Positions 7,431 to 49,172 of a stretch of 64,000 nt of DNA are shown here, in pieces. The position numbers were made by a program, and so were the translations under genes. Under the pieces are notes generated by a model, which was not told the origin of the DNA, ran no database searches, and worked only from the letters and a program-made list of their open reading frames with translations. Location: positions 80,260 to 144,259 of the forward strand of contig CAZVZC010000001.1 in assembly GCA_964631415.1 (NCBI GenBank), given 5' to 3'. Position 1 is the stretch's first letter; the number at the start of each line of letters is the position of its first letter. The stretch is from an uncultured archaeon. Lineage in GTDB: Archaea > Asgardarchaeota > Thorarchaeia > Thorarchaeales > Thorarchaeaceae.

Positions 7431-7695
7431 CATCGTTTCCTTCCTGATTTGCTGACGACATCAGTCTGTGGCTTCCTGTGAGTCGCCAATCCTAGCTGGA
7501 CAGTGTAGTACGGGTTTTCGGATATCCATTGTCAATTAGATGGACTCATGGTTTCTCGAACCATCTAATACACAATCGGACCAAACCACCAACATATCGG
7601 TTTGACGCTTCAAAGAATCCATAAAACTTCAAACGGCCAAGAGAGGCCATGTAAAGGCAATTCACCATCATCAGGTTCCATCACAATCAAGTTTC

Positions 7696-7703
7696 ATTAT
7701 ATA
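7696..7703 (+). promoter_or_regulatory. TATA-box candidate for the 7738 gene
   Basis: ATTATATA lies about 38 nt upstream of the TTG start, which implies a very short leader. Confidence 0.45.
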
Positions 7704-7737
7704 CTCGCATTCCGCGAGCGGCAGTCGGCGATCTTCC

Positions 7738-8925
7738 TTGAAGACACGAACAACATTACTATTCGGAGCGTTTCTCCTTTCTGTGCTTTTGGGACCACTA
7801 ACGATTGCAGCGAATGCCCAGAACCTTGACTCGGGTTACCAGCAGAATCAAGGTTCACAAATGGGGCCGGGTGGACCACCAGAGCAGCACAGAGGTAGCG
7901 ACGGAAGCGTCTGGATAAACACGGACATAATCACGATAATGGCCAATGATGAGTTCCCAATGCTCCACTTCTGGTACACGTCTGATGACAATGGTACTCG
8001 TGCCAAGTTCATGATCTCCTATACCACAATTGTTGAGTTTCAAGACCTCAATGGCGATGGAGCCTTCCAGTCCGATGAGCGTCTTTACTTTGCTCCCCTC
8101 GCTGCATATGATTGGACTGTGACGACTGGTGCAGTCGAAGACAACGGTACTACAACTGAGGTCTGGCTGAAGTACACGAAGGGTGGCATACGCAGTGGAA
8201 ACATGATACCAGGGGCACCCATGTATGGCATGCATGATAATGACTCAGTCCAGCGGTTCGAGGATGTCACGCTGCAGATTTGGGCGCACATATACCTCAC
8301 AGACTACACCGGTAATGTCACGGACGATCATGGTGTAAAGGCCAACTACACCGTGGCTGGCGGGTCGGAGCTGAAGATGGACATTAAGATTGGCAATTTC
8401 CCATTCAGCACTGAAACCTCTGGTGTAGCGATTCAGACAATGCTGAGGGAAAACGAGGCTCCCGGCAACCACGACATGTACCATCACCGGTTCCAGACCC
8501 ACGAGAGGCTTCGTAACGTCAACATGACCTCCGACATGAACTGGAACACCGGGGACGGGAACGAGTCCATGTTCGAGAGGATGAATGGCACTGATGTTCA
8601 GCGCATTCAGTTCATGGATGACATGTCGGACGTTGCGCAGGGTTTCTTCAGCTGGGTGGATCAGGCAGTGATAACTTGGCCCGGAGGAGCAACCGAGGCG
8701 GTCAACGTTACAGCCTCCTACATGCCCACGGGAATGGGTGTGGCTGTCTACTTGGCCTACCCCAACTTCGACAACGGCACACTGACCCACGATCCATCGA
8801 TAGGCCTGTATGAGAGCGGAGTTCCCACTAATACACTGTCCATCGACATGCCCGTTGTCCTTGGGATTGGGTTGCTGGCTGCAGTTGCCATTGCCGTAGT
8901 CGTTCTCCGGAGAAAACAGTGGTGA
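7738..8925 (+). CDS. Secreted, C-terminally membrane-anchored protein with many N-glycosylation sequons (surface glycoprotein candidate)
   Basis: Signal peptide 'MKTRTTLLFGAFLLSVLLGPLTIAANAQ' and C-terminal TM plus basic stop-transfer 'VVLGIGLLAAVAIAVVVLRRKQW'. At least 9 N-x-S/T sequons and a 'DLNGDGAF' Ca-loop-like motif. TTG start. Confidence 0.6.
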   Translation: MKTRTTLLFGAFLLSVLLGPLTIAANAQNLDSGYQQNQGSQMGPGGPPEQHRGSDGSVWINTDIITIMANDEFPMLHFWYTSDDNGTRAKFMISYTTIVEFQDLNGDGAFQSDERLYFAPLAAYDWTVTTGAVEDNGTTTEVWLKYTKGGIRSGNMIPGAPMYGMHDNDSVQRFEDVTLQIWAHIYLTDYTGNVTDDHGVKANYTVAGGSELKMDIKIGNFPFSTETSGVAIQTMLRENEAPGNHDMYHHRFQTHERLRNVNMTSDMNWNTGDGNESMFERMNGTDVQRIQFMDDMSDVAQGFFSWVDQAVITWPGGATEAVNVTASYMPTGMGVAVYLAYPNFDNGTLTHDPSIGLYESGVPTNTLSIDMPVVLGIGLLAAVAIAVVVLRRKQW

Positions 8926-8930
8926 GTAGC

Positions 8931-8964
8931 GTAGTGGACACAGTCCACTACCATTTTTCTTCTT
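8931..8964 (+). terminator. Hairpin plus T-tract terminator candidate
   Basis: Perfect 9-bp stem GTAGTGGAC-ACA-GTCCACTAC starts 6 nt after the stop codon and is followed by CATTTTTCTTCTT. Confidence 0.6.
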
Positions 8965-9036
8965 AACAGAACAATCTTATGGACATAGCAAAATGGAAGG
9001 TACACCTCAGAACCAATAGACATGAAACGATGGTGA

Positions 9037-10038
9037 TTGACGGTGAAAGGTCTGCTGCTAGCTCTGGTAATCATATCACTAGCAGTTCCGATTGCTCTGC
9101 CCTTTCAGGTTCAGGCCGCCGATACTGATACTGTTGTGCTCAATCCTGTAGAAATCCGAGCCATCATGCATGAGAATACGACCAGTACACTGATAGTCGA
9201 TGCACAGGTGAACAACGTAGGTTTGTCATCCATGTCCTCACTCAGTTTCGGTGTTGATTCACTTCAGGTGAATGTCATTACCGCTCAGATTGGCAATGAA
9301 ACAACCGGTGGAGCGACAATCCTGAGAGATGGTTACACCGAAGTCACAGTCACCCTTCCAGACGTTCTGGAAGCAAATTCATCTGTCTGGCTCCATCTAG
9401 CACTCTTAGCCAGCGATCTTCAATCACCCCTCACTGTCGCGCAGGATGCCAGTCTTCTTCGTGGTGACTTCATCTTCTATGTCAGGCCTCTCTCCGTCTT
9501 CGCCAACTTCACGTTCACTGCGGTTCTTCCACCCTTTGCATCTCTATCCCTCGATTCTGTAGTACCCCTCTTTCCTGACTCTGAATCCAACTTCACTGAT
9601 GGCCATTCACTCATATTTGTCTGGGAAGTCCCGCTGCTCCTCCCCGGCCAAGAGCGAGTATTCATAGTCAAGTATCAACTTCCCAACACCTCTACGGTTC
9701 AAACACAGTCTTCACTTCTTGGAAGTCTCCTGTATGGAACACTGGGTGTCATAGCTGGGCTTGCCCTAGCATTCGGTGGGCCGAAGGTGATTGAACGATT
9801 GAGGCACCTCGGAGCCGTAAGATATGTTGGAGTCACAGCTGAAGAAGAGGAGGTCCTCGCGACCATCCGGGAGAAAGGCGGCTCATGTACTCAGAAAGAG
9901 CTCTACAGCCAGTTTGACATGTCGCAGTCGAAGATGAGCCTGATCCTTACTAACCTTGAACAGCGGGGTTTGATTCGAAGACTAAAGGAAGGACGGGAGA
10001 ATGTGGTCCACCTGATGGAGCCCAAGCAACCTGACTAA
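9037..10038 (+). CDS. Membrane-tethered winged-helix (MarR/TrmB-like) protein with a large extracytoplasmic N-terminal domain
   Basis: Signal peptide 'LLLALVIISLAVPIALPFQVQAAD', an extracellular region of about 200 aa, TM 'LLGSLLYGTLGVIAGLALAFGG', then wHTH 'EEEVLATIREKGGSCTQKELYSQFDMSQSKMSLILTNLEQRGLIRRLKEGRENVV'. Start is TTG 9037 or GTG 9043. Confidence 0.6.
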   Translation: MTVKGLLLALVIISLAVPIALPFQVQAADTDTVVLNPVEIRAIMHENTTSTLIVDAQVNNVGLSSMSSLSFGVDSLQVNVITAQIGNETTGGATILRDGYTEVTVTLPDVLEANSSVWLHLALLASDLQSPLTVAQDASLLRGDFIFYVRPLSVFANFTFTAVLPPFASLSLDSVVPLFPDSESNFTDGHSLIFVWEVPLLLPGQERVFIVKYQLPNTSTVQTQSSLLGSLLYGTLGVIAGLALAFGGPKVIERLRHLGAVRYVGVTAEEEEVLATIREKGGSCTQKELYSQFDMSQSKMSLILTNLEQRGLIRRLKEGRENVVHLMEPKQPD

Positions 10039-10048
10039 GAGTCTGACT

Positions 10049-10750
10049 TCACTCCTCGCCTTCTGGACCAAGCCTCTTTCCCGGGGGCAAATCATCCATC
10101 AATAGTCTTTCAGACTCTGCCTTTCTTACAGCCGCTGTGGCCTTCTCACCGCCGATATTCTCCAGTGCGCCGGCTGCAGTCTGCCTGACGAACATTGATT
10201 CATCATGCAAGACACTTATCAGTGGCTCAACAGCAGCGGTGTTCCTCCTTTCACCGAGCTGGGCAGCAGCGAGAATGCGCACCATGTATCTAGGATCTCT
10301 CAGGCAGCTGATGAGTTGTGCTGTTGCACGTGGGTCGTCCATACCCCCAAGACGTTCAATGGCACCAAGCGAAACCTGTTCGTCATCGCTCCGCACCTCA
10401 GCCGCAAGGTCGTCGATGATGGAACTCTGATCTGCCAGACTTCGAGGGACTCTTTCAGATATTACTACTCTGTGTGCAATCTCCTCTGGGGCCTTCTGCT
10501 TCTTGGCACGAGTCGGAGCAGTTCGGGGAGTCTTGGTCTTCTCTGCTTTCACCACTTTTCTAGCGGGACCTTTCTTCTTGCTTGCCGCAGGAGCCCTGCT
10601 TTTTGTTTCTCCTCTCTTCTCACCCTTATTGACGCTTGATGCCTTTGGCAACTCTCTATCTCCGGGCCTTGATGAGGACGCAATGCCGGTCCGCAGCTGC
10701 TCTAATAAAGAGTCTGAGTCCACTTCGTCACAGCAAAAACGCCTTAACAC
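10049..10750 (-). CDS. HEAT-repeat (PBS-lyase type) protein with a lysine-rich disordered N-terminal tail
   Basis: Repeats 'DPRATAQLISCLRDPRYMVRILAAAQLGE / AAVEPLISVLHDESMFVRQTAAGALENIG'. The N-terminal part is 'KKKGPARKVVKAEKTKTPRTAPTRAKKQKAPEE'. Confidence 0.6.
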   Translation of the reverse strand: MLRRFCCDEVDSDSLLEQLRTGIASSSRPGDRELPKASSVNKGEKRGETKSRAPAASKKKGPARKVVKAEKTKTPRTAPTRAKKQKAPEEIAHRVVISERVPRSLADQSSIIDDLAAEVRSDDEQVSLGAIERLGGMDDPRATAQLISCLRDPRYMVRILAAAQLGERRNTAAVEPLISVLHDESMFVRQTAAGALENIGGEKATAAVRKAESERLLMDDLPPGKRLGPEGEE

Positions 10751-10781
10751 ACTTCAGGATTTCGCTTCTCTGGTGACCTCC

Positions 10782-11201
10782 TTGCATGAGTTCTCTGCTG
10801 CCTGCTCCATCGTGGAAACTGTCCTAGAGGCAGCAAAGAGTTATGGCGTGACAAGGGTCAAGGCTGTGAACATTGAGGTCGGAGAGTTCACTTTCCTTCT
10901 GCCTGAACAGCTGCGTTTCAATTTTGAGATTGCAAGTCAGAAGACAATCGTTGAGGGTGCGGAGCTGAACATCAGGATGGTGAAAGGAAGGTTGATCTGT
11001 CGTGACTGCGGGCACGAGGGCGAGGCACAGAGTCCTGATGAGGCTCTGGGTCCTGCCGCCATGTTTGCGCCAATGAAGTGTACCAAGTGCGGCAGTAGCG
11101 CTACGACAATCACTGGTGGCAAGGATTTTCTGATAGCAGATATCGAGGCAGAAGTTGCAGCCCCTGCCAAGAAACAGGGACCTAGATCAAAACCGCATTG
11201 A
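10782..11201 (+). CDS. hypA: Hydrogenase nickel-insertion protein HypA
   Basis: '(M)HEFSAACSIVETVLE' N-terminus and Zn site 'CRDCGH...CTKCGS'. The start is placed at TTG 10782. The tracked ORF from 10503 runs antisense through the HEAT gene. Confidence 0.8.
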   Translation: MHEFSAACSIVETVLEAAKSYGVTRVKAVNIEVGEFTFLLPEQLRFNFEIASQKTIVEGAELNIRMVKGRLICRDCGHEGEAQSPDEALGPAAMFAPMKCTKCGSSATTITGGKDFLIADIEAEVAAPAKKQGPRSKPH

Positions 11202-11709: not shown

Positions 11710-12723
11710 ATGGCAAAGATAGAATCCGCCCACGGTGCTGGTGGGAGAATGATGCAGAGTCTGCTGCAAGAAGTGATCATCCCCTCCTTTGGGCTTAGGA
11801 AGATTGGGACCATAGGTCTAGACGAGATGGATGATGGAGCGACACTACAAGCGAATGGTGCAGGCCTCATAGTGACCGCAGATGCGCACACCGTCCAACC
11901 GCTCTTCTTTCCAGGTGGCAACATCGGAACTCTTGCTGCTTGTGGCACAGTCAATGACCTAGCTGTCATGGGCGCTAGACCTGTCGCAATGACAAACACG
12001 ATAGTGGTAGAGGAGGGCTTCGAGATTGAAACACTTCATGAGATCCTGAAGTCATTGAACGCCATCATAGAACCGCTTGAGGTCGCGATGATTGCAGGAG
12101 ACACGAAGGTCATGCCGAGAGGGACTCTTGATGGCCTCGTGATGTCAACATCTGGCATCGGCACACTGTATCTGGACTCTCCTGTTCCAGACAGTGGCGT
12201 CAAGGCCAGCGATGACATAATTGTCACTGGGCCGATAGGGGATCATGGGACGGCATTGCTGGCTCACAGAGAGGGACTCAAGTTTGAAACTGATTTAACA
12301 AGTGACGTGGCTCCTCTCTGGGAGCCGATACGTGGCTGTCTCGACGTTGGGGGTGTACACGCAATGAAAGACCCGACTCGTGGTGGGACTGCAGTCGCCC
12401 TGAATGAGTTCGCATCGAAGTCGAGGGTCGAGATTGAGCTAGATGAGGCCCGCGTGCCTGTTCGTCCTGCCGTGCAGTCCCTGTGCGACATTCTGGGTCT
12501 GGAACCCCTCCACATAAGCTGCGAAGGTCGGGCAGTCATGGCAGTAGACCCCTCCATGACCAACGACATTCTACGAGCCCTATCAGAGCACAAGACAACC
12601 CGAGATGCATGTGTCATTGGCAAGGCGCACAAGGGCGTGGGACGGGTGCTACTGAAGACGGCGATAGGGGGCAGGAAAGTCCTGCAGGTGCCCTATGGAG
12701 AACCGGTGCCTAGGGTCTGCTAG
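11710..12723 (+). CDS. hypE: Hydrogenase maturation protein HypE
   Basis: 'SAHGAGGRMM' N-terminus, PurM-like fold motifs and the invariant C-terminal Cys in '...PVPRVC*'. Start is placed at ATG 11710. Confidence 0.85.
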   Translation: MAKIESAHGAGGRMMQSLLQEVIIPSFGLRKIGTIGLDEMDDGATLQANGAGLIVTADAHTVQPLFFPGGNIGTLAACGTVNDLAVMGARPVAMTNTIVVEEGFEIETLHEILKSLNAIIEPLEVAMIAGDTKVMPRGTLDGLVMSTSGIGTLYLDSPVPDSGVKASDDIIVTGPIGDHGTALLAHREGLKFETDLTSDVAPLWEPIRGCLDVGGVHAMKDPTRGGTAVALNEFASKSRVEIELDEARVPVRPAVQSLCDILGLEPLHISCEGRAVMAVDPSMTNDILRALSEHKTTRDACVIGKAHKGVGRVLLKTAIGGRKVLQVPYGEPVPRVC

Positions 12724-12838
12724 GTCGTGTCCGAATCAGCTTCGGGTGGTACACTCGCCGAGTACTCTGAGGATTGGCAACGGTGAACCAACACAAAGCG
12801 AGAGTCCGCCAGTTCCATCTAGAGCATCTCATCCGGTC

Positions 12839-13396
12839 CTAGAGTGCCTCGGGGGTTTCCTCTCCTTCTTGGTCCCCAGAAAGAATACGCTTCAGTTGGA
12901 ATTTCAGCTGTGCCTTGAGTCTGACCTTGTCTGAATCAAGGCCAAAGTAGTCAGAGAAGAGCTGAGTTGTCGTGAGCATCTTGCTCCGGCCCTCTGCCAC
13001 AGCATCTACGAACTTCTTCTCCTCGAGTTCCTTCACATGATCATAGACATGAGTGCCCCTCTGGGCAACAAGGTCCGACTGTAAGATAGGCTGTTTGAGG
13101 GCAATGTACACCAAGGTCTGAAGAGTGCCAAATGAGAGGAGTCCACCAGGTATCAGTCTTCCTACCCGAGTGGTCAGTTCGGGTTTGAGCTGCAACACAT
13201 ACCTGTCCCTCGGCAAGTCCACAACCTCCAATGCCCCACCGCGCTGGTGATACTCGAAGTTCAGGTCATCCAGAAGCTTCTTTGCGGTAGACTCTGCCTT
13301 TCCAATAATGTCTGCCAGCTCCTGCAGTGTCATTGGTCTGCCCGCTACATAGAGCGCCGCCTCGAGTGTCACTAGGTCGTCATTCAAGCATATCAC
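12839..13396 (-). CDS. scpB: Segregation and condensation protein B (ScpB)
   Basis: 'LEAALYVAGRPMTLQELADII' wHTH repeats. ATGA-type overlap with scpA. Confidence 0.8.
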   Translation of the reverse strand: MICLNDDLVTLEAALYVAGRPMTLQELADIIGKAESTAKKLLDDLNFEYHQRGGALEVVDLPRDRYVLQLKPELTTRVGRLIPGGLLSFGTLQTLVYIALKQPILQSDLVAQRGTHVYDHVKELEEKKFVDAVAEGRSKMLTTTQLFSDYFGLDSDKVRLKAQLKFQLKRILSGDQEGEETPEAL

Positions 13397-14112
13397 CTAG
13401 CCCTCACATGCGGCTTGACCCCTTCTGAGGGCTTCTCCGTTTCTTCGGGCGGAGGCACTAGCTTGACCCATATCACGCTCTTCTTGTCCATCCAGAGGTC
13501 AATGAATGCTCTAGCATAGAGATGCAGCAATGAGAAGAAGATGCGAACTATCTCTCTTCGCGTGTTATTGACCAGTAGGTCAGTGAACCTGACGACTTCG
13601 CCCACTTTGACAATCTTCCAGATGTCCGCATACACCTCAGCGATGGTTTCCTCGATGTTCACCCGGGACGTATCCATGCTGAAAGATAGGGGTTCTGCCT
13701 CTGACCTTCTGTATCGCGACTGAGGAATTGGCCGCTCTCTTATGCCCTTGCTCAGGACTCGGTCCATTGCCATGAGTAGTTCCTGCAGGGTCACTCTTCT
13801 GTTTGTAAGTCTGAAAGGCGGTAGTATCTGGGGGATTGCAAGTTCCTCTTCCTCCTCGTCTACTTCGGGAGGAATCAGGCCGAGTTCCACGAGGTCTCTG
13901 GTCTTCTTCATGAAGATGACTGATGCAGAGTAGAGAGCATTTCCTGAAACTCGGAAGTCAATGTCCCCCATTCTTCTCATTTCTTGCAGAAAGCTTGCAA
14001 CGAGCTTCCCGACATCCACGTTCCAAGGTTCGATGTTGTCCAGCTGAAGGACATCGGTCAGGAGGATGTAGGGTGGCGAGGCCCAGAAAGGCGTATCATC
14101 ACTCGTGCTCAC
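13393..14112 (-). CDS. scpA: Segregation and condensation protein A (kleisin ScpA)
   Basis: 'PWNVDVGKLVASFLQEMRRM...FRVSGNALYSASVIFMKKTRDL'. Sits in an operon with smc and scpB. Confidence 0.8.
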   Translation of the reverse strand: MSTSDDTPFWASPPYILLTDVLQLDNIEPWNVDVGKLVASFLQEMRRMGDIDFRVSGNALYSASVIFMKKTRDLVELGLIPPEVDEEEEELAIPQILPPFRLTNRRVTLQELLMAMDRVLSKGIRERPIPQSRYRRSEAEPLSFSMDTSRVNIEETIAEVYADIWKIVKVGEVVRFTDLLVNNTRREIVRIFFSLLHLYARAFIDLWMDKKSVIWVKLVPPPEETEKPSEGVKPHVRAR

Positions 14113-17100
14113 GCTGACTCAGCCACCTCCTGAAGGTCCACTGAAACTATTCTGGATATGCCATCTTGGTTTGACACACCAATGAGCATGTCAGCTTTTC
14201 GTACTGTGGTATCCCTGAGCGACACAACTATGAACTGAGAGTTCTTGGACATCTCTGATATCAACAATGCAACGTTGTGCGCATTGACGTCGTCCAAGGC
14301 TGCATCTATCTCATCAAAGACATAGAAGCTTGCGGGGTTGTGCATCTGGATGGCGAAGATCAGTGCCAAGCCGGTGAGTGTCTTTTCCCCGCCGCTCATC
14401 GCATCAAGAGAAACCAGCTCTTTGCCTGCAGGCTTGGACCTGACAGTGATGCCTCCCATCAATGGATGTTCGGCGTTCTCTAGCATCAGGTTGGCCTCGC
14501 CGCCAGGTGATAGCTTGGTAAAAACCTTCGAGAAGTTGTCCGCTATGCTGTTGTATACCTGAAGGAACTTCTGAGTCTTCTCCTTCTCTAGCTCCTCCAT
14601 GAAGGACAGTATCTCTTTGTGTTCCTTCTCAAGCTGTGTCTTCTTCTCGACAATTTCGTCGTATCTTCCCTTTTCAGTGTCATAGTCTGTGAGCGACTTC
14701 AAGTTGACTGGACCCATTGCCTCGAGTTCTCTCTCAATCTCTTTGATATTCTCTTCGAGGTCCTCAATTGCTTTGGCAGTCAGCTCACGTTGTCCTGCTC
14801 TCTTCTCAAGCTCTGTTTCCACGTCGGTCACTGCACCAAGCTGAGCAGTTAGTCCGACCAGATCGGTTTCCAGACGTGAGCGTTCTACTTGGAGCCTGTA
14901 GACCGCTTTCTCATTTCCGGTCTGCGACTCCTTGATCTCTTCCTGCTTCAGCCTAAGGTTTCTGATGGTTTCCTTCAGTTTCAGCTGCCGTACTCGCTTA
15001 TCCTTGACTGCCGTGTCAATCTGTTCCCTCTCCGACTTCAGTTTGAGAAAATCGCTTTCTTTTGCCCTGAGGTCGGCCTCAATAGATGTAGCATCCTCTT
15101 CCAGACTCGGCAATACTGCCTCCAGTGACGCGATTCGGTGTTCCAGTTCTACTGACTTGGGCAAGTATCTCTCTTGAATCGAAACTCTCAGTGCGGAGGT
15201 CTCGGTCCGAATCCTCTCGTGGTTTCGCTTGTGCTGTTCCAGGACCTCCTTCAGATCTCTCAGGTCCTGATTCAGCTTGGCCGTACCTGACTTTGCCAGT
15301 ATTTCGTTGCACTGGTCTCTCTGTTCTCTGACTCTCTCTCTCTGAGCAGTGAGCTCCTCATCTCGAGTCCTGAGCTCAGATATCTGTCGCTCCAGTTCCT
15401 CAATCGTGACTCTTGCCTTGTCTATCTTCTCTTTCAGTTTCTGTGCTTTTTGCTCCCTGTCCCTGAGTTTCTCCTCCAAGCCCTTCAGTTCCAGCCCGTC
15501 CCTGTAATTCCGCTTAGAAATTTCTTCAATCTCACGGTCAAGTGCCTTTTTCCTGCCCAAGAACTCCTCCTGCTGTTCTTGCAGCTCAGACAGGATGTCC
15601 TCAAGGCCCTTGAGGCGTGAAATCACGTCTGGGCTCGTGTCCTCCTCTTGAAGTGAGAGACCCGTTGAATCTCTATGGAAGTGTCCTCCAGTGATCAGCC
15701 CCGAGCGTTCTACCAAGTCACCCTCCAACGAAACCGCTCTACAGTTGTCGAAACCCATGGCCTTTGCGGTATCGAAGTCCTTAGTCACAAGTGTGTCCGA
15801 GAATACGAATTCAAAGGCAGGACGCATCTTTGGGTCAAAGGTCACAAGGTCCAGTGCATAGCCTATCACACCCTCTTTCTGTGGCTTCCGACTCGGTCTT
15901 CGTGTCTTTATCCTGTTGAGTGGGATGAACGAGGCCCGTCCTACTCGCTCTTTCTTAAGCACATCAATACATCGAGTGGCCACATCCTCATTCTTTACGA
16001 CTATGTGGGACAGCCTGTTACCCGCCGCCACTTGCATGGCTGTAGCATAGTCGGGGTCTATTACTCCCAGTTCTGCTACTGTACCGTAGACCCCGTCAAT
16101 CTCTCCCTTGTCACGTAGTTCAAGCACTCTGGCCAAGGCTCTCCGGCGTTTCAAGAACGCCTCTTCGGCCTCTCTCAATGCATCCTGACGAGCCTGCAGC
16201 TTAATGAGTTCTTCCTTTGTCGAGGTAACGAGCTTGCTGCTCTCACTCACCTGCGCGTCCACTGTGGTAAGTTGCCTCTCAGTGTCCTCAAGTTCCTGCC
16301 GCCTTGCCACTTCGGACTCCTGTAGTCTTTGAAGGGCTGTAGTCTTTGCCGGAACGATGGAGCCGAGTTCTGACAGTTCCTCGTCTGTCTTCTTCAGGGA
16401 ATCCTCAGCATCGCGTAACTCCTCATATGTGAGCCCCAGTTCCTTACTATCTGATTTGATGGTAGACCTGATTTCAGTCACACCCTCATCGAGGTGCGCC
16501 ATCTGTGTGTTGAGGTCCTGAAGCCTTAGAGTGGCTTCATAGTATGCAGACTGCTCTCTTTCAAGAAGACCATCGAGTCGTGCGATGTCAGTTGAACATC
16601 CTAGGATCTCCTTGTCAAGACTCTCAAGACCGAGCTCCTTCTCCTTGATTGCATACTCCGCAGCGGTCATCTGGTCTTTCGTGGAACCTAGTTGCTTCTC
16701 AAGTGTGTCCCGTTCTTGTCTGGTTCTGTCATAATCACTCTTCGCACGATCCAGTTTGCTCCGGAAGTGTTCAACTTCTGCAGTCATGGTACCATACTGC
16801 TCAGAAACCCTTGAGGCGTTTCCACCGGTTATCAGGTCAATCTCCTGTTCTATCTCTTCAATCTCAGACTCGGTCTTGGCCATGTCTGCTTCGACCTTGG
16901 TCAGCTGCTTGGCAAACCTCTCAGCGTCTGCGGCTCGATCCGCAAGTGTTTCGTCTATCGTACTCGTCCGGTTCTTGGACTTGATGACTGTCCAAGTCAC
17001 GCTCTCGATCTTGGTCTGCTGTATCTGATCACGTAGACCCGTGTAGCGGAGGGCGTCCTTCCTTTCTGCTTCCAGCCGCTCCAGCTGGTGACGACGTTCT

Positions 17101-17699
17101 TGGAGCTGCGTTTCGACCTTGCCTAGGTTGGTTTCACTCTCTGCGAGCTTCTTGAGCGCCTTCTCTTTCTGCTCGTCATAGGCTGATATGCCTGCAATCT
17201 CCTCAATGAGCTTCCGTCGTTCGATCGGGCTGACTTTGACCATCTGGGCAATCTCGCCTTGGAGTACAAGATTGTAGCCATTTGGGTCAACGCCTATGCC
17301 GCCGAGGATATCTATCACGGCCGCACGGGTGACCATCTTGCCGTTTATCCTGCAGACTGACTTACCAGACTCGTCCAGCTCTCTCTCAACAACGACTCTG
17401 TCGGCATCGATTTGCAGTTTTCTGTCCCTGTTGTTGAAGCAAAGCTCTACAACGGCCGACTTGGCCTTTGGAGGCATGTCTGGCTTGGGAGGACTATAGA
17501 GCAGCTCCGAGAAGACATTCGCACGCAATGTCTTGGCACTCAGCTGCCCAAGCACAAAGAGAATCGCATCAATGACATTAGACTTGCCTGACCCGTTCGG
17601 CCCGACGATACAGGTGAAGCCAGGACTGAGGTTAATCGTGACGGTGTCCCGGCCAAATGACTTGAAGCCTTTGCATACTAGCTTCTCGATGTGGACCAA
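14109..17699 (-). CDS. smc: Chromosome segregation ATPase SMC
   Basis: 1196 aa with Walker A 'GPNGSGKSN', long coiled coils, a hinge, signature 'LSGGEKTL' and Walker B 'FYVFDEIDAALD'. Confidence 0.95.
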   Translation of the reverse strand: MVHIEKLVCKGFKSFGRDTVTINLSPGFTCIVGPNGSGKSNVIDAILFVLGQLSAKTLRANVFSELLYSPPKPDMPPKAKSAVVELCFNNRDRKLQIDADRVVVERELDESGKSVCRINGKMVTRAAVIDILGGIGVDPNGYNLVLQGEIAQMVKVSPIERRKLIEEIAGISAYDEQKEKALKKLAESETNLGKVETQLQERRHQLERLEAERKDALRYTGLRDQIQQTKIESVTWTVIKSKNRTSTIDETLADRAADAERFAKQLTKVEADMAKTESEIEEIEQEIDLITGGNASRVSEQYGTMTAEVEHFRSKLDRAKSDYDRTRQERDTLEKQLGSTKDQMTAAEYAIKEKELGLESLDKEILGCSTDIARLDGLLEREQSAYYEATLRLQDLNTQMAHLDEGVTEIRSTIKSDSKELGLTYEELRDAEDSLKKTDEELSELGSIVPAKTTALQRLQESEVARRQELEDTERQLTTVDAQVSESSKLVTSTKEELIKLQARQDALREAEEAFLKRRRALARVLELRDKGEIDGVYGTVAELGVIDPDYATAMQVAAGNRLSHIVVKNEDVATRCIDVLKKERVGRASFIPLNRIKTRRPSRKPQKEGVIGYALDLVTFDPKMRPAFEFVFSDTLVTKDFDTAKAMGFDNCRAVSLEGDLVERSGLITGGHFHRDSTGLSLQEEDTSPDVISRLKGLEDILSELQEQQEEFLGRKKALDREIEEISKRNYRDGLELKGLEEKLRDREQKAQKLKEKIDKARVTIEELERQISELRTRDEELTAQRERVREQRDQCNEILAKSGTAKLNQDLRDLKEVLEQHKRNHERIRTETSALRVSIQERYLPKSVELEHRIASLEAVLPSLEEDATSIEADLRAKESDFLKLKSEREQIDTAVKDKRVRQLKLKETIRNLRLKQEEIKESQTGNEKAVYRLQVERSRLETDLVGLTAQLGAVTDVETELEKRAGQRELTAKAIEDLEENIKEIERELEAMGPVNLKSLTDYDTEKGRYDEIVEKKTQLEKEHKEILSFMEELEKEKTQKFLQVYNSIADNFSKVFTKLSPGGEANLMLENAEHPLMGGITVRSKPAGKELVSLDAMSGGEKTLTGLALIFAIQMHNPASFYVFDEIDAALDDVNAHNVALLISEMSKNSQFIVVSLRDTTVRKADMLIGVSNQDGISRIVSVDLQEVAESA

Positions 17700-17893: not shown

Positions 17894-18301
17894 CTATGAC
17901 TTGACCATCAACATGAGCGCGCGCTTGAGCGCGATTCTGAGAAGGCCCATTGACTCTTTCGCGCCTTCTCCGGCGATTGCAGCAAGGACGAGTTGGACAT
18001 CACCCAAGACTATGACATATCCCTTGTCCGACGCTATACTAATCTCCTTTAGAATGCCCTTGTCAACCGCCGTGACTAGTTGCGACGAGTTCGCAGATAT
18101 CTTGGCGATTAATGCTGCAACGTCTGTGTGTTTGATTCCAGCCGTAACGGTGTGACCGAACAACACCTTGCCCTTATCATCACAAACCACAATGCCCTGT
18201 ATGTCAGCATTTGCCGCCATGGTCTGTGCCACGACTGACTCTATCTTGGCCTTGTCCACCATCGTGACAGTCCTCCGAAGATTTTCACCCGCTGTCATCA
18301 T
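17894..18301 (-). CDS. Roadblock/LC7 (MglB-like) domain protein, paralogue 1
   Basis: 'IQGIVVCDDKGKVLFGHT...DVAALIAKISANSSQL...GYVIVLGDVQLVLAAIAGEGA' fits the Roadblock pattern. Start is placed at ATG 18301/18298 because the ATATAAA TATA box lies about 22 nt upstream, suggesting a leaderless transcript. Confidence 0.75.
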   Translation of the reverse strand: MMTAGENLRRTVTMVDKAKIESVVAQTMAANADIQGIVVCDDKGKVLFGHTVTAGIKHTDVAALIAKISANSSQLVTAVDKGILKEISIASDKGYVIVLGDVQLVLAAIAGEGAKESMGLLRIALKRALMLMVKS

Positions 18302-18579: not shown

Positions 18580-20205
18580 ATGCCCATGCTTAGAACCAGT
18601 TCAGAGGCCTTTCCAGCCTCGAAAGACATGATCAGTGAAATTCCATATGTCCTGCGTGTTGAGTTTAGAGACCTCGCACGCGACGTAACAAGAATCACAG
18701 GAATGCCAATCGCATGCCACAAATGTAACGGCTTTCTGATGAGCGTCGACCAGATTGTTGAGGACAGGAAGATCGGGAAGCACTTTGTCTGCCCCTTCTG
18801 TGGCACCTTGAATGTGATTGCAGGTGAAGTGGTCTTTGCCGGCTCAGACACGGATTTCGTCATCAAGCCAGCTCCCGACAAGACCGAAACCACTACAGTC
18901 GCGTCTGCTGGCGGTAGGTCATTCTTGGCCGTGATTGATGTATCCGGCTCAATGGCTGGGGCCAATCTGGCAGCAGTGAAGAGGAGTCTGACCACCTCTG
19001 TTGAGAGCCTAGTCGCGAACACTCCCGATACGCTCTTCGGGTTGATCGAGTTTGAGAGTTCTGTTCTGTTTCGCAATATGGAAACGGGCGAAGCCGTGCA
19101 GCTTCCAAGAGAGTCCTTTGCGAGCTTCGAGGCTATCACTGAAGCCGCACGAAAACTCATGGACAGAATCAAGCTTGTCAAGGTGGGTGGAAATGCTGGC
19201 ACTCTAAAGCGTCACATCAATGCCCTGAGAGAGCAGGGTGGGACCGCTCTTGGCCCTGCGGTAGCCATGGCGTGTATGATTGCCAAGCACCGAGGTGTAG
19301 GCAGGGTGATTCTTCTTACTGACGGACTTGCGAACGAAGGCATTGGCGCTCTTGAGGGCTACCAAGTCACTCCTGGAAACAAGTACTATGAAGACCTAGG
19401 ACGTCTGTTCAAAGACAATGGCACAGCGATCGATGTAGTTGGAATCGCCACTGGTGCAGGAATGGAGCTGAGAACACTGGGCCTGATGCCAGAGGCCACC
19501 GGTGGCCAGATGTACTATGTCACGCCAAATGAACTCGACAAGAGCCTGTCAGAGCTAGCGGGAGCATCGCTGCTCGGTCGCGATGTTCAAGTCCGACTTC
19601 TTACTCCGGTAGGCGTGAAGGTCAAGGACGCTTCAGGAATATCAAGGGCCGTTGTGGAAGAACTCAGGACGAAGAGCGAGAGCAAGATAGGGGTCGTGGG
19701 TGAGAATCACGAGCTCTATTTTGAGGTGGAGCCCGAGAGCAAGCTCAAAGCCAAGGAAGTCCCCATCCAAGTGCAGGTGGAGTACACTGACCAAGATGGG
19801 TCCAGACGGATGCGTACTTTCACCAAGAAGCTGCGGGTCACTTCAGATGAGAAGGAGCTCGTGAAGACAATGGACCCGACCATCGGCGCCACTTTCGTTG
19901 TTCAGAAGGCTGGAGAGGAGGCCCTAGGCGGCGGTCGTGCCGCCGGCATGACTCGGATTGCCAGTTTCAGGGCTGCAATGAAGGAGAAGGCCAAGGCCGC
20001 ACCGGCGCCAGTACAGGCGAAGCTGCAGAGGGCCGATGATGCGCTTGCCTCCGAAGAGGAGAACATGGAACGCCAGGAAGCAGCAGTGGGCGGTGCGCGA
20101 CCGGGGGCACCATCAGCCGCAGCCGATCAAGCAGTCACCGAGAACTTGGCCCAAATGAGAAAAGCGTCCAAGGCGCTCTTTCACGACGAAGAGGATGAGA
20201 AGTAG
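18580..20205 (+). CDS. Sec23/24-like protein: Zn-finger, vWA 'trunk', beta-barrel, then a disordered acidic tail; no gelsolin domain
   Basis: Zn-finger 'CHKCNGFL-x17-CPFCGTLN'. Trunk/MIDAS 'SFLAVIDVSGSMAG...LFGLIEFESSV...GGTALGPAV...RVILLTDG...YYEDLGRLFKDNGTAIDVVGIA...ATGGQMYYV'. Barrel 'ELYFEVEPES...IQVQVEYTDQDGSRRMRTFT'. These are colinear with the human SEC23A motifs as I remember them. Confidence 0.65.
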   Translation: MPMLRTSSEAFPASKDMISEIPYVLRVEFRDLARDVTRITGMPIACHKCNGFLMSVDQIVEDRKIGKHFVCPFCGTLNVIAGEVVFAGSDTDFVIKPAPDKTETTTVASAGGRSFLAVIDVSGSMAGANLAAVKRSLTTSVESLVANTPDTLFGLIEFESSVLFRNMETGEAVQLPRESFASFEAITEAARKLMDRIKLVKVGGNAGTLKRHINALREQGGTALGPAVAMACMIAKHRGVGRVILLTDGLANEGIGALEGYQVTPGNKYYEDLGRLFKDNGTAIDVVGIATGAGMELRTLGLMPEATGGQMYYVTPNELDKSLSELAGASLLGRDVQVRLLTPVGVKVKDASGISRAVVEELRTKSESKIGVVGENHELYFEVEPESKLKAKEVPIQVQVEYTDQDGSRRMRTFTKKLRVTSDEKELVKTMDPTIGATFVVQKAGEEALGGGRAAGMTRIASFRAAMKEKAKAAPAPVQAKLQRADDALASEEENMERQEAAVGGARPGAPSAAADQAVTENLAQMRKASKALFHDEEDEK

Positions 20206-20393: not shown

Positions 20394-20732
20394 ATGCTAA
20401 ATGCACAATTGACAGCAGCGGGGATTCTACAGTTGGTTAGCCAAGACAAGCTCCGGTCGATTCTCTCTAAGATCAAGGCGCAAGGAGGAGTCCGAGGAGT
20501 TGTGGTCACAAATATGGAGGGCTTGCCACTTAGCAGCGATCTAGACCCCGAAACGACTGAAGCTGTCGCCGCCATCATAACCTCCCTCGTGGGCAAGGCA
20601 CTTGATGCAGTGAGAGAACTCCGAGAGGGGTCTCTGTCATTCCTGACCCTCGACACATCTAAGGGTCAGATTAACATAGCACCCGATGTGAAAGAGGGGT
20701 TAATACTAGTAGTCCTGAAGAAACCGAGCTGA
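20394..20732 (+). CDS. Roadblock/LC7 domain protein, paralogue 2
   Basis: 'VRGVVVTNMEGLPLSSDLDPETTEAVAAIITSLVGKA...LSFLTLDTSKGQINIAP...LILVVL'. Start is placed at ATG 20394. The upstream part of the tracked ORF is Cys/Pro-rich and implausible. Confidence 0.75.
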   Translation: MLNAQLTAAGILQLVSQDKLRSILSKIKAQGGVRGVVVTNMEGLPLSSDLDPETTEAVAAIITSLVGKALDAVRELREGSLSFLTLDTSKGQINIAPDVKEGLILVVLKKPS

Positions 20733-20747
20733 AAGGAGAACGATGAC

Positions 20748-21215
20748 ATGAGCGATCCAAAGGTCTTCGACAAGATCCTCACTGAGATCATCCGCCAAGA
20801 CAAGGGCATAAAGAAGGTAATCCTTGTAGACAAGACTGGGCTGACAATCGCAAATGTCAGCAAGCTCAGCTACTTCCCGATTGACACAGATTCGATAGGC
20901 GCGATTGCGAGCGCGGTGTTTTGCGCCAGCGAGGAACAGGGGAAGAACCTACAGATCGGAGAGCTTGAGATTGTTACCTCTGAGTTCTCAGAAGGTAAGA
21001 TATTCGCCTCTGCATGCGGCAAGGGTGTCCTGTGTGTTGTTTCCGAGTCCGAGGTGAACATTGGCCTCATCCGGCTCATCATGAAGAAGCAGGGTGTTCA
21101 GCTCGCAGAAGAGTTGGAGAAGTTCTTGGCAGTCGAACCCACAGCACCGTCAAAGGGCAAGGAGCTGGACGAAGAGGATCTGAAGTCTGCTCTGGCAGAG
21201 CTCGAAAAGGTATGA
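20748..21215 (+). CDS. Roadblock/LC7 domain protein, paralogue 3, with an acidic C-terminal helix
   Basis: 'IKKVILVDKTGLTIANVS...IGAIASAVFCASEEQGKNL...GKIFASACGKGVLCVVSESEVNIGLI'. It starts 15 nt after paralogue 2. Confidence 0.75.
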   Translation: MSDPKVFDKILTEIIRQDKGIKKVILVDKTGLTIANVSKLSYFPIDTDSIGAIASAVFCASEEQGKNLQIGELEIVTSEFSEGKIFASACGKGVLCVVSESEVNIGLIRLIMKKQGVQLAEELEKFLAVEPTAPSKGKELDEEDLKSALAELEKV

Positions 21216-21462: not shown

Positions 21463-22026
21463 GTGCGCAAGGATGACAAGGGCAGGATTCATCTCAAGCT
21501 GGTTTTCTATGGCCCGAGCCTAGGCGGCAAGACGACTGCGCTACGTTGGCTGTACGGAAAGGTTGAGGGTCTCCAGAAGGGAGAGTTTACAGCAATCGAA
21601 GATGAAACAAACCGAACCCTGTTCTTTGACTACGTACCTATGAGCGCGGGAGGTCGTGTCCTCTTTGACGTGTTCACCGTCGCAGGACAGAAGCGACACA
21701 GGCATCAGAGGAAGGTTGTGCTCCAAGGGACTGACGGGATACTGTTCGTTGCGGACTCATCTCCCGACCAGCGAGAGGAGAATGTTGAGAGCTTCGAGGA
21801 ATTGAAGCTGTTCTTAGGTGATGTATTGGGCCGTGATATTCCCATTGTAGTCATGCTGAACAAGCGTGACCTGCCCAACAGGATGTCTCGTGATGAGATG
21901 CTTGATCTACTGGGACTCGGTGGCAACGTACCGATCTACGAAACCATCGCCGTTCAGGGCGTAGGAGTTAAGAGAGCCTTCCAGGCCATAGCACGGGAAG
22001 TCATCCTTAAGAGAATGTACAAGTGA
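21463..22026 (+). CDS. MglA-type small Ras-superfamily GTPase
   Basis: G1 'GPSLGGKTT', switch-I Thr in 'NRTLFFDY', G3 'FTVAGQ' (Thr in place of the Ras Asp, as in MglA), G4 'NKRD' and G5-like 'ETIAVQG'. GTG start. Confidence 0.8.
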   Translation: MRKDDKGRIHLKLVFYGPSLGGKTTALRWLYGKVEGLQKGEFTAIEDETNRTLFFDYVPMSAGGRVLFDVFTVAGQKRHRHQRKVVLQGTDGILFVADSSPDQREENVESFEELKLFLGDVLGRDIPIVVMLNKRDLPNRMSRDEMLDLLGLGGNVPIYETIAVQGVGVKRAFQAIAREVILKRMYK

Positions 22027-22036
22027 ATGCACCTAG

Positions 22037-22417
22037 GTGAGTCTGATGAGCGAGTCGCGGGGCGATACACTCGAGGGAGTCCTGAACGAGCTGCAAGGCA
22101 GTATTCCTGAGATTGAGGCCTGTGCCATAGTGAGTGTTGAGGGGCTTCCGATAGTTTCAGCCCTGCCAACCGACGTTGATGAGGCGAAGCTCGCAGCGAT
22201 AACAGCAGCGATGTTGACACTGGGTGAAAAAGCAGCGGTCGAACTGGGAAAGGGCAATCTTGAACAGGTCAATGTGAAGGGTGTCAATGGTTGGATACTT
22301 GTGATTCAGGCGGGGATGAACGCATGCCTCACAGTGTCAACCACAGCCAATGCGAAGCTTGGTCTTGTATTCCTTGACATGAAACGAGCTGCAGAGAAGG
22401 TAGCCCAACTCATCTGA
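22037..22417 (+). CDS. Roadblock/LC7 (MglB-like) domain protein, paralogue 4
   Basis: 'IEACAIVSVEGLPIVSALPTDVDEAKLAAITAAMLTLGEKA...GWILVIQAGMNACLTVSTTANAKLGLVFLDM'. It starts 10 nt after the GTPase stop. Confidence 0.8.
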   Translation: MSLMSESRGDTLEGVLNELQGSIPEIEACAIVSVEGLPIVSALPTDVDEAKLAAITAAMLTLGEKAAVELGKGNLEQVNVKGVNGWILVIQAGMNACLTVSTTANAKLGLVFLDMKRAAEKVAQLI

Positions 22418-23412: not shown

Positions 23413-24663
23413 ATGGCTTTGGTCAGGACTCCAATCGAAGTCTACAGAGGGCTGGTCCGGACGCATCTTGGTGACGAGTTGCCAACACACCTTAGGGCTG
23501 TCACTGATCGATTCTCAGAGGGAACATTCGCTGGTCAGAGCACATCAGGCCACTTGACGAGACTCCTGACATTGTTCTGTCGGTTCATGGCATACCTTGA
23601 CTCTAGAGAAGTCGCCAACTTATCCGATCTCACTCGCGCAGTAGACTTGCTTGATTACTTCGCATCGACCTCTAAGTGGTGGTCAATAACAAGAAAGGCG
23701 CCTGGGCTAGTGCTTAGGCCGCCATCACATGACCCGCATGAATTCATGGAATCTCTTGCCGCTGTCCAGCTTGGCAACGAAACGCTTAGTCGTATCGCTG
23801 GCTCTACCGAGAAAATGTCACAGTACCTAGAAGAGCATGGCATAGCTGAGTCACGCACTAAATCCGATTTGTGTGAGAGTTTCGCCTCAGTCTGGGCGGT
23901 CATGAGCGCAATCGTTTCGAAGAGTCAGGGACGCACTGTAACCTCAGAGAACGACTTCGAAGTGGGATATGATGTGATTCGGGTGCTGTTGTTCTACAGC
24001 TCAGTCGATGACTTCAAGGCGTTGACTGCCATCCGAACTGTGGGCACGAACCCCAAGATGCATCGAGCTGCGGGCGTGTCCTTGGCACCCGGTTTCGAAC
24101 GAAAGCTGGACTCTTCGGCGATAGCTCGACTCGAACGGCTACACGGCGAGAGTCTGTCGAAGCTCGCAGGATTGACGTCGGGAGCCGGCCGTTCCATTCT
24201 CACAAACTCCCTCCGGTTTCTTGCTCAGCAGCTGGCAGTAGAGCGGGCTTTCATGAAAGTTGAGGAGCAAAGCTATGAATCTACGATAGCAGCAGCATTA
24301 GTTGCGCTCAGGAATGTCGGCATTCCATCTGGGCTCTTTCAGGAGGAGTCTGCAGTAGTCAGCCTCTTCAAGAGCCTCAAACCCTCAGATGATATCGGGG
24401 AGCGAATCGGTTTCCTGATGAGACGTTTCGAAGGCCTGATTGCTGACTCCGCAGGCAGTCGTGAGTTTCTGCTGCAGCATTCTCGGCTGGTACCTCAGCT
24501 GGTTTCATTGCTGCTACTTCTCGCTTCTGGGACTAAGCCGAAGCTTGAGGGCGGGCTCCAAGATCCCGACCTAAAGAGAGGCCTGATTCTGCTTGAGCAA
24601 CTGCTCAACGACTTGGGCTCTGTGTCTTCTTTGTCTCCTCAATCAGAATTCTCGCATCGATGA
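23413..24663 (+). CDS. Hypothetical protein, predicted all-alpha, no recognisable motif
   Basis: 416-aa ORF with coding-like composition and helix-favouring Leu/Ala/Glu/Arg-rich sequence. No catalytic, TM or metal motifs. Its 3' end overlaps acdB by 59 nt. Confidence 0.5.
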   Translation: MALVRTPIEVYRGLVRTHLGDELPTHLRAVTDRFSEGTFAGQSTSGHLTRLLTLFCRFMAYLDSREVANLSDLTRAVDLLDYFASTSKWWSITRKAPGLVLRPPSHDPHEFMESLAAVQLGNETLSRIAGSTEKMSQYLEEHGIAESRTKSDLCESFASVWAVMSAIVSKSQGRTVTSENDFEVGYDVIRVLLFYSSVDDFKALTAIRTVGTNPKMHRAAGVSLAPGFERKLDSSAIARLERLHGESLSKLAGLTSGAGRSILTNSLRFLAQQLAVERAFMKVEEQSYESTIAAALVALRNVGIPSGLFQEESAVVSLFKSLKPSDDIGERIGFLMRRFEGLIADSAGSREFLLQHSRLVPQLVSLLLLLASGTKPKLEGGLQDPDLKRGLILLEQLLNDLGSVSSLSPQSEFSHR

Positions 24664-48737: not shown

Positions 48738-48836
48738 TCCTCTTCTCGTCCGTTTTGACGTCTTGTCAACACACTTTGATAATACACACTGTAAAAAGCC
48801 TCCTACTTGGAATGAAGCGTAAGGAGTCAGAACCGG

Positions 48837-49172
48837 ATGACTGCGAAAGAGCCGTTGACGAGTGTCGAGGCAGAACTGTATGAACTCAGCATGCCTGGCC
48901 GCCTTCTGGGGAAAGAGGTGCTCGACAACCGAGCGAGGCGAATTGGCATAGTGCGTAGCATAAGAATCGGGCTCAACCCCACCCGTTCCGAGCTGATAAT
49001 CAAAGGTGCAGAGGTGGAGTTTCCGGTTGATTTCTCCAAGGTTGAAACTGTTGGCACTGTGGTGCAACTGAACTCCATGGTCAAGGATGCCGAAGAGATC
49101 GAAGTTCATGATGTGATCAGGCTTCAGAAGGAAGTACTAGACGACATACGCAGTTACTTGGGTGGACACTAG
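48837..49172 (+). CDS. PRC-barrel domain protein
   Basis: 'LLGKEVLDNRARRIGIVRSIRI...ELIIKG'. AAGGAG lies 12 nt upstream of the ATG. Confidence 0.6.
   Translation: MTAKEPLTSVEAELYELSMPGRLLGKEVLDNRARRIGIVRSIRIGLNPTRSELIIKGAEVEFPVDFSKVETVGTVVQLNSMVKDAEEIEVHDVIRLQKEVLDDIRSYLGGH

Follow-up and report, generated by a model that had tools for sequence, protein, structure and literature searches.

What does an Asgard archaeon do with a protein built like the inner-coat subunits of the eukaryotic vesicle coat complex COPII? The question is raised by a gene at positions 18580 to 20205 (plus strand) of a 64,000-nucleotide stretch of DNA from an uncultured member of the Thorarchaeaceae (GenBank assembly GCA_964631415.1, contig CAZVZC010000001.1, positions 80,260 to 144,259; the whole stretch is referred to here as the window). 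An initial annotation, made from the sequence alone, had described the product as a minimal Sec23/24 architecture in which the zinc finger, trunk, and β-barrel are present and the helical and gelsolin domains are replaced by a disordered acidic tail, and had suggested that it could represent an ancestral unit of cargo adaptor and GTPase-activating protein (GAP). We find that the encoded protein is almost certainly a cytosolic Thorarchaeota member of the already known Asgard Sec23/24-like family, comprising a zinc finger, a von Willebrand factor A (vWA)/trunk domain with a MIDAS (metal ion-dependent adhesion site), a split β-sandwich, and a helical domain, with the gelsolin domain alone missing. 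The explanation that we favor on balance is that this family member acts as a MIDAS-dependent adaptor tied to a small-GTPase switch and not as a GAP. The most useful new angle lies in two features, a kinship with eukaryotic circularly permuted Ras (cpRAS)-VWA proteins that is much closer than that with COPII and a Thorarchaeota-specific neighborhood of Roadblock and MglA-type genes.

The gene and its product are organized as follows.

18580 to 20205, plus strand: Sec23/24-like coding sequence, 541 amino acids and a stop codon (open reading frame list; orthologs have the same length and start)
18580 to 18699, plus strand: residues 1 to 40, N-terminal β-strands that complete a split β-sandwich (model strands; conserved in Thorarchaeota)
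18700 to 18819, plus strand: residues 41 to 80, Sec23/24-type zinc finger with C46, C49, C71, and C74 (Pfam, invariant cysteines, Sec24 alignment)
18820 to 18918, plus strand: residues 81 to 113, variable linker, partly disordered at residues 104 to 110 (model confidence and conservation)
18919 to 19569, plus strand: residues 114 to 330, vWA domain/Sec23 trunk with a complete MIDAS (Pfam Sec23_trunk, VWA, and VWA_2)
19570 to 19845, plus strand: residues 331 to 422, Sec23/24 β-sandwich (Pfam Sec23_BS; model strands)
19846 to 20181, plus strand: residues 423 to 534, folded Ala-rich helical domain (six model helices; folds alone)
20182 to 20205, plus strand: residues 535 to 541 (HDEEDEK) and the stop codon, a short acidic end of low confidence (predicted local distance difference test score [pLDDT] below 50 at residues 538 to 541)

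All of the peptide strings that the initial annotation had matched to SEC23A occur in the reading frame, including the 17-residue spacing between the two cysteine pairs, and Pfam, a family profile compared with the PDB, and an AlphaFold model agree on the presence of the zinc finger, trunk, and β-barrel. For this individual sequence, the Pfam check upheld the trunk, which scored above its cutoff (Sec23_trunk, 38.5 bits against 27; E value, 1.3e-9; residues 115 to 315) together with generic VWA matches, and left the other two domains under theirs, Sec23_BS by a narrow distance (33.3 bits against 33.5; E value, 7.5e-8; residues 335 to 421) and zf-Sec23_Sec24 more clearly (18.7 bits against 25; E value, 0.0018; residues 43 to 80). 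Sec23_BS was matched in 32 of 49 relatives and zf-Sec23_Sec24 in 11 of them (best E value, 2.9e-8). A single-sequence search of the PDB returned weak matches to Sec24C and Sec24D (E value, about 1e-3); a 28-member family profile recovered yeast Sec24 with an E value of 2.8e-24 (89 bits; profile positions 41 to 468), followed by human Sec24A (1.4e-21; 80 bits), Sec24C/D (about 2e-15), ArnB (2e-12; 50 bits), Sec23A (3e-10; 43 bits), and yeast Sec23 (4e-8). Judged by these scores, the homology to Sec23/24 lies well beyond chance and is stronger to Sec24 than to Sec23.

An AlphaFold2 model built from a 49-sequence alignment reached a mean pLDDT of 93.1 and a predicted template modeling score (pTM) of 0.92. 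When this model was compared to the PDB with Foldseek, the best 46 matches were all to Sec23 or Sec24 (E values, 2e-30 to 2.5e-20; query TM score, 0.60 to 0.73); below them came a vWA protein from Catenulispora (4fx5; 4e-17) and the ArnAB complex of Sulfolobus (8s05; 8e-16). The β-sandwich is split by the zinc finger and trunk, and both its N-terminal and its C-terminal strands are present in the model, with residues 1 to 40 contributing strands E4-6, E10-12, E23-28, and E37-40 at a pLDDT of 91 to 97. The linker at residues 81 to 113 is the least conserved segment of the protein and holds its sole internal stretch of low confidence (pLDDT below 50 at residues 104 to 110).

The C-terminal segment departs from its first description, in which the helical domain was absent and the last 110 or so residues were disordered, acidic, and of low complexity. 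Residues 424 to 534 form six confidently modeled and conserved helices (H424-429, H433-449, H453-471, H476-504, H513-526, and H530-534), with the pLDDT per ten-residue block at 94 to 98 over residues 401 to 500, 81 at residues 501 to 510, and 91 to 97 over residues 511 to 530, and the segment modeled alone still gives a pLDDT of 89 and a pTM of 0.81. It contains 24% Ala, its entropy of 3.66 bits corresponds to normal complexity, and only residues 535 to 541 are both acidic and of low confidence. The majority frequency per alignment column in Thorarchaeota is 0.77 in this segment versus 0.83 in the whole protein, and invariant positions include R498, Q499, P511, S512, A515, D516, L523, Q525, M526, and S530. 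In the 28-member profile, the initial pair of helices lines up with the beginning of the helical domain of Sec24, and the segment aligns with eukaryotic relatives up to profile position 518 to 528 of 533. Because Pfam Sec23_helical has no match in the 541-residue protein and the isolated helical-domain model returned nonsignificant Foldseek matches to generic helix bundles in the PDB (E value, at least 0.49), a specific homology to the Sec23/24 helical domain rests on position and partial alignment and is unproven, although the segment is a folded domain. The absence of a gelsolin domain was correctly noted, as Pfam Gelsolin has no match in the 541-residue protein and the chain stops 7 residues past the helical domain. 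Tail charge varies across the family, being acidic in Thor and Hermod lineages and basic (K-rich) in others; we also considered the acidic tail as an internal ligand of the MIDAS and rejected it as a family feature, since many lineages have a basic tail or none.

The protein is already known at the level of family and architecture. Databases hold more than 120 proteins of about 540 amino acids with 68 to 94% identity to it, all from Thorarchaeota metagenome-assembled genomes (MAGs), and one Thorarchaeota ortholog is already annotated as "SEC24 family transport protein [Thorarchaeota SMTZ1-45]". Scanning species-representative genomes with an alignment smaller than the 28-sequence one located 79 loci, all of them Asgard (Thor-, Hermod-, Jord-, Frey-, Borr-, Hod-, and Odin-labeled MAGs together with Lokiarchaeum ossiferum), with the nearest homolog in Thorarchaeota isolate OWC3 (93% identity) and the Lokiarchaeum ossiferum protein at 24% identity; in the loci scanned the gene is single copy per locus, and no paralog pair of Sec23 plus Sec24 was found. 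Asgard Sec23/24 homologs were first reported by Zaremba-Niedzwiedzka et al. in 2017, as cited in PMC9648965, so that the architecture flagged in the initial annotation has been known in Asgard archaea since that year. A more recent study (PMC11914678, Nat Commun 2025) found that Sec23-like proteins of Asgard archaea have four of the five Sec23/24 domains, that all of them lack the gelsolin domain, which bears the catalytic residue, that residues contacting Sar1 are missing, and that Foldseek returned Sec23 for them. The window copy has the same domain set and the same missing gelsolin domain, nothing essential about it differs, and it adds one more Thorarchaeota example and no new architecture. 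What can be refined is the presence of the helical domain, the functional-looking metal site, which is incomplete in yeast Sec24, and the identity of the nearest eukaryotic kin; in the papers that we consulted we found no mention of the conserved MIDAS, of the Thorarchaeota Roadblock/MglA neighborhood, or of the cpRAS-VWA kinship.

To which eukaryotic proteins, then, is the family closest? An exhaustive search of 1.84 billion cluster representatives returned 993 matches at an E value of ≤1e-3 and 611 at ≤1e-10. The homologs of about 500 to 560 amino acids that we checked were Asgard except for one Entamoeba protein, and several longer ones that we looked up were eukaryotic. The eukaryotic matches included sea urchin, nemertean, and annelid proteins named "Circularly permutated Ras protein 1-like", an amoebozoan protein, choanoflagellate proteins, and a protein on a compact eukaryote-like contig; the Entamoeba protein (E. 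invadens EIN_474480; P0163) is a 547-amino-acid "VWFA domain-containing protein" without a GTPase domain. These matches belong to the family of cpRAS-VWA proteins and their GTPase-less paralogs, in which a four-cysteine zinc finger lies upstream of a vWA/"Sec23 trunk" domain (Elias and Novotny 2008, PMC2430557).

The window protein matched the sea urchin protein by BLASTP over residues 24 to 475 with an E value of 9e-41, and hhalign of an Asgard-only against a eukaryote-only profile gave a probability of 100% and an E value of 1.4e-71 over 455 columns. The Asgard-only profile scored the eukaryotic relatives at 213 to 275 bits across profile positions 8 to 528 of 533, and for comparison the COPII proteins reached 89 bits (Sec24) and 43 bits (Sec23A) with the nearly identical 28-sequence profile. 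By these sequence measures, the closest eukaryotic relatives are the cpRAS-VWA and zinc-finger-VWA proteins and not COPII Sec24 or Sec23. In a rough neighbor-joining tree with yeast Sec24 as the outgroup, the eukaryotic zinc-finger-VWA proteins were monophyletic in 72% of bootstraps and branched close to the base of the Asgard part, although Sec24 sits on a very long branch that makes the rooting unreliable and limits the tree to weak support. The two groups share a collinear zinc finger, vWA domain with intact MIDAS, β-sandwich, and C-terminal helices, both without gelsolin, at 22 to 28% identity, and the Entamoeba invadens protein matches even the "minimal" length of the window protein (547 versus 541 amino acids). 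They differ in that a circularly permuted Ras GTPase stands at the N terminus of many of the eukaryotic proteins, whereas the window protein starts with sandwich strands and has no GTPase domain, like the GTPase-less paralogs, among them the Entamoeba protein. None of the papers that we searched names both cpRAS and Asgard.

Unusual domain fusions occur among the eukaryotic and metagenomic relatives (P0286, from Acanthoeca spectabilis, 1094 amino acids; P0171, from a metagenome, 1089 amino acids; and P0159, P0169, and P0204). Some have the circularly permuted Ras GTPase at the N terminus, and others in the same set have actin N terminal to the zinc finger and vWA domain or Kelch and ankyrin repeats at the C terminus.

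Across 49 diverse homologs, Asgard and eukaryotic alike, the MIDAS residues D120, S122, and S124 (DxSxS), T222, and D248 do not vary, and neither do the zinc finger cysteines C46, C49, C71, and C74, which align with the zinc finger of Sec24; this joint invariance implies selection for metal-dependent binding. The intact DxSxS motif that the initial annotation had pointed out in the window protein is a feature of the whole family. Yeast Sec24, as aligned to the profile, retains DxSxS and the Thr and has a Gly at the position of D248.

The genes surrounding the Sec23/24-like gene offer a second line of evidence.

12839 to 17699, minus strand: SMC, ScpA, and ScpB, a complete set upstream, syntenic in Thorarchaeota
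17894 to 18262, minus strand: Roadblock/LC7 gene A, divergently oriented (Pfam Robl_LC7 and LAMTOR5, weak)
20394 to 20732, plus strand: Roadblock/LC7 gene B, directly downstream, start codon uncertain (Pfam Robl_LC7; E value, 2.2e-15)
20748 to 21215, plus strand: Roadblock/LC7 gene C, MglB/LAMTOR3-like, bearing an acidic extension at the C terminus (Pfam Robl_LC7 and MAPKK1_Int; NCBIfam MglB, weak)
21463 to 22026, plus strand: MglA-type small GTPase (PDB MglA at an E value of 1e-38 versus Arf at 1e-12; Pfam Arf and Ras)
22037 to 22417, plus strand: Roadblock/LC7 gene D, paired with the GTPase and 10 bp after it (Pfam Robl_LC7; E value, 6.7e-17)

No Thor-type locus of sufficient length lacks this Roadblock/GTPase block. 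An ortholog of Roadblock A occurs in 37 of 43 Thor-type loci, the remainder being mostly cut off at a contig end; the gap between the Sec23-like gene and Roadblock B, about 190 bp in the window, never exceeds 640 bp (42 loci), that between Roadblock B and Roadblock C is at most 30 bp (39 loci), and that between the GTPase and Roadblock D has a median of 11.5 bp (34 loci). The tight units are therefore the Sec23-like gene with Roadblock B and Roadblock C, on the one hand, and the GTPase with Roadblock D, on the other. Roadblock C has a C-terminal extension of about 45 residues whose final stretch is acidic and helix-like (KELDEEDLKSALAELEKV); as pure speculation, this extension could be a ligand for the neighboring MIDAS or GTPase.

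Taken together, four associations suggest a tie between this module and small GTPases: the binding of Sar1 by Sec23, the cpRAS fusion, the MglA/Roadblock neighborhood in Thorarchaeota, and a GTPase gene beside the homolog of one other Asgard locus (L073). The mechanism that we put forward, tentatively, is that of a MIDAS-dependent protein-binding adaptor or scaffold that serves as the effector of a GTPase/Roadblock switch. Through an Mg2+ ion bound at its MIDAS, the protein would capture an acidic residue on a partner, a proposal that we derive from the invariance of the MIDAS in an intracellular vWA domain, and the β-sandwich, zinc finger, and helical domain may form a second docking platform, for which the related ArnB offers a precedent (PMC12852372). 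In Thorarchaeota the protein would probably serve as effector or scaffold for the Roadblock pair next to it and for the MglA-type GTPase close by. Sec23/24 is also known to bind Sec22, and PDB entries 2nut and 2nup are among the Foldseek matches. On the Sec22 side, this contact is made by the longin domain, whose fold is related to that of Roadblock; the adjacent Roadblock pair is thus a plausible partner.

Several observations weigh against a GTPase-linked adaptor. We examined 42 other Asgard loci with phmmer, custom hidden Markov models, and a scan for G1-G3-G4 motifs, and among them found no Roadblock/GTPase neighborhood outside the Thorarchaeota, with the exception of the L073 GTPase. Within the Thorarchaeota, 1 to 4 kb of inserted DNA, at most 3.9 kb, separates Roadblock C from the GTPase in 9 of 37 loci, and the distance of about 190 bp from the stop codon of the Sec23-like gene to Roadblock B leaves cotranscription a matter of conjecture. 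The SMC and UPP synthase flanks are also syntenic within the Thorarchaeota, a sign that the order of genes around here is widely preserved, and because of this the linkage, suggestive as it is, is explicable by inherited gene order alone. The linked GTPases (MglA-type, cpRAS, and Sar1) belong to different families. Finally, three Sec23-like proteins from Asgard archaea coimmunoprecipitated with an Asgard Arf in yeast only weakly and irrespective of nucleotide state (PMC11914678).

GTPase genes were seen near homologs in two other Asgard lineages. In L073, an Arf/Ras-type GTPase reading frame (positions 7102 to 7803) lies 33 bp upstream of the homolog, and in a Hod-like lineage (L077, positions 12407 to 13033, and seven sister loci) a Rab-like GTPase gene lies a few kilobases downstream, located by the motif scan at 2.8 to 6.3 kb in four Hod-like loci. 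Given the density of GTPase genes in Asgard genomes, this proximity is probably at chance level over the 472 kb of flanking sequence.

The usual reading of the Asgard Sec23/24-like proteins is that of a proto-COPII coat, and Asgard archaea do encode membrane-binding Arf-like GTPases (PMC11914678). An Arf/Sar-like GTPase would recruit the protein to a membrane, a basic face formed by the zinc finger and β-sandwich would bind that membrane, and the protein would select cargo and help to bend the bilayer as an inner coat or cargo adaptor. We regard this as unlikely, if well worth weighing. Four of the five Sec23/24 domains occur in the same order (zinc finger, trunk, β-sandwich, and then a helical domain) within a Sec23/24-like fold, its best profile match is Sec24, the cargo-binding subunit, and the authors of PMC11914678 favor coat precursors. 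The β-sandwich segment (residues 331 to 422) is basic, with a pI of 9.35 and a net charge of +3 within an otherwise acidic protein (pI 5.8 overall), which is weakly compatible with membrane apposition. In L006 (JGI 3300009332, an unclassified Asgard), a gene for a 485-amino-acid WD40 β-propeller (positions 7592 to 9049) overlaps the 3' end of the homolog (7617) and recalls Sec13/31 or Sec12, in this single lineage only.

Against a coat stand the differences from COPII itself. Sec23 and Sec24 have a gelsolin domain; the window protein does not, and hence has no Sec23 catalytic residue and no docking site for Sec31, and it is about 200 residues shorter, with identity of about 15%. The Sar1 contact residues are missing from the family, and the Arf binding seen in yeast was of the weak, nucleotide-independent kind described above. 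The MIDAS, incomplete in yeast Sec24, is intact and invariant in the family, the neighboring GTPase is MglA-type and not Arf/Sar, no outer-coat genes are linked in Thorarchaeota, and each locus carries a single copy. The family is far closer by sequence to the eukaryotic cpRAS-VWA and zinc-finger-VWA proteins than to COPII, so that the ancestral cargo adaptor of the initial annotation is not established and "proto-COPII" claims should be tempered.

An ArnB-like signaling module, in which the C-terminal helical domain would be phosphorylated or otherwise switched to swap partners and thereby control gene expression or a surface structure instead of trafficking, seems to us quite improbable. ArnB and ArnE of Sulfolobus and bacterial ArnB-like proteins (PDB 8s05 and 4fx5) share with the window protein a MIDAS-vWA domain inserted in a β-sandwich and followed by a helical domain, and ArnB is found by both Foldseek (8e-16) and the family profile (2e-12). 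In ArnB, a cation is held in the MIDAS, and the β-sandwich and helical domain dock the zinc finger of a partner (PMC12852372). The C-terminal helices of the window protein also contain conserved Ser and Thr residues (S512, T520, and S530) that would fit phosphorylation. The Sec23/24 matches are nevertheless far stronger (2e-30 versus 8e-16 by Foldseek; 89 versus 50 bits by profile), and the zinc finger, which in ArnAB packs on the sandwich and helical domain but belongs to a separate FHA protein, ArnA, is in cis in the window protein, as in Sec23/24. Phosphorylation controls ArnB, which is a regulator of the archaellum. A Pfam scan of the neighbors of the window gene found no FHA, kinase, or phosphatase genes.

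A minimal ancestral GAP, in which the 541-residue core would by itself stimulate a Sar/Arf-like GTPase to hydrolyze GTP, has nothing but homology to Sec23 in its favor and is highly implausible, because the gelsolin domain, in which the Sec23 catalytic residue sits (PMC11914678), is absent here, the sequence resembles Sec23 less than it does Sec24, a subunit without GAP activity, and the neighboring MglB-like Roadblock proteins are more obvious GAP candidates for the MglA-type GTPase.

The MIDAS-dependent adaptor that we favor can be extended into an evolutionary scenario that we consider a long shot. The Asgard Sec23/24-like proteins would be the effector arm of a small-GTPase/Roadblock switch and not stalled proto-COPII subunits, the scattered eukaryotic cpRAS-VWA and zinc-finger-VWA proteins would be their direct descendants, some with the GTPase in cis, and COPII Sec23/24 would have split off and evolved rapidly, with loss of the last Asp of the MIDAS and gain of the gelsolin domain. 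If this were true, a signature protein often cited as a hint of pre-eukaryotic vesicle coats would need to be relabeled, and the function of an uncharacterized eukaryotic family would become testable.

Elsewhere in the window, a 416-amino-acid reading frame at positions 23413 to 24663 (plus strand) has no Pfam match and has a conserved counterpart next to the UPP synthase gene of a further Thorarchaeota genome (L001, positions 9949 to 11151; 400 amino acids, likewise with no Pfam match). The remainder of the window that we sampled (4150 to 7430, 34800 to 36143, 37269 to 39074, 46416 to 49109, 50077 to 51873, and 56179 to 58371) encodes ordinary archaeal housekeeping functions, among them succinate dehydrogenase/fumarate reductase-like subunits, SRP54, subunit A of the A-type ATPase, the Hef helicase-nuclease, an aldehyde ferredoxin oxidoreductase, and CDC48.

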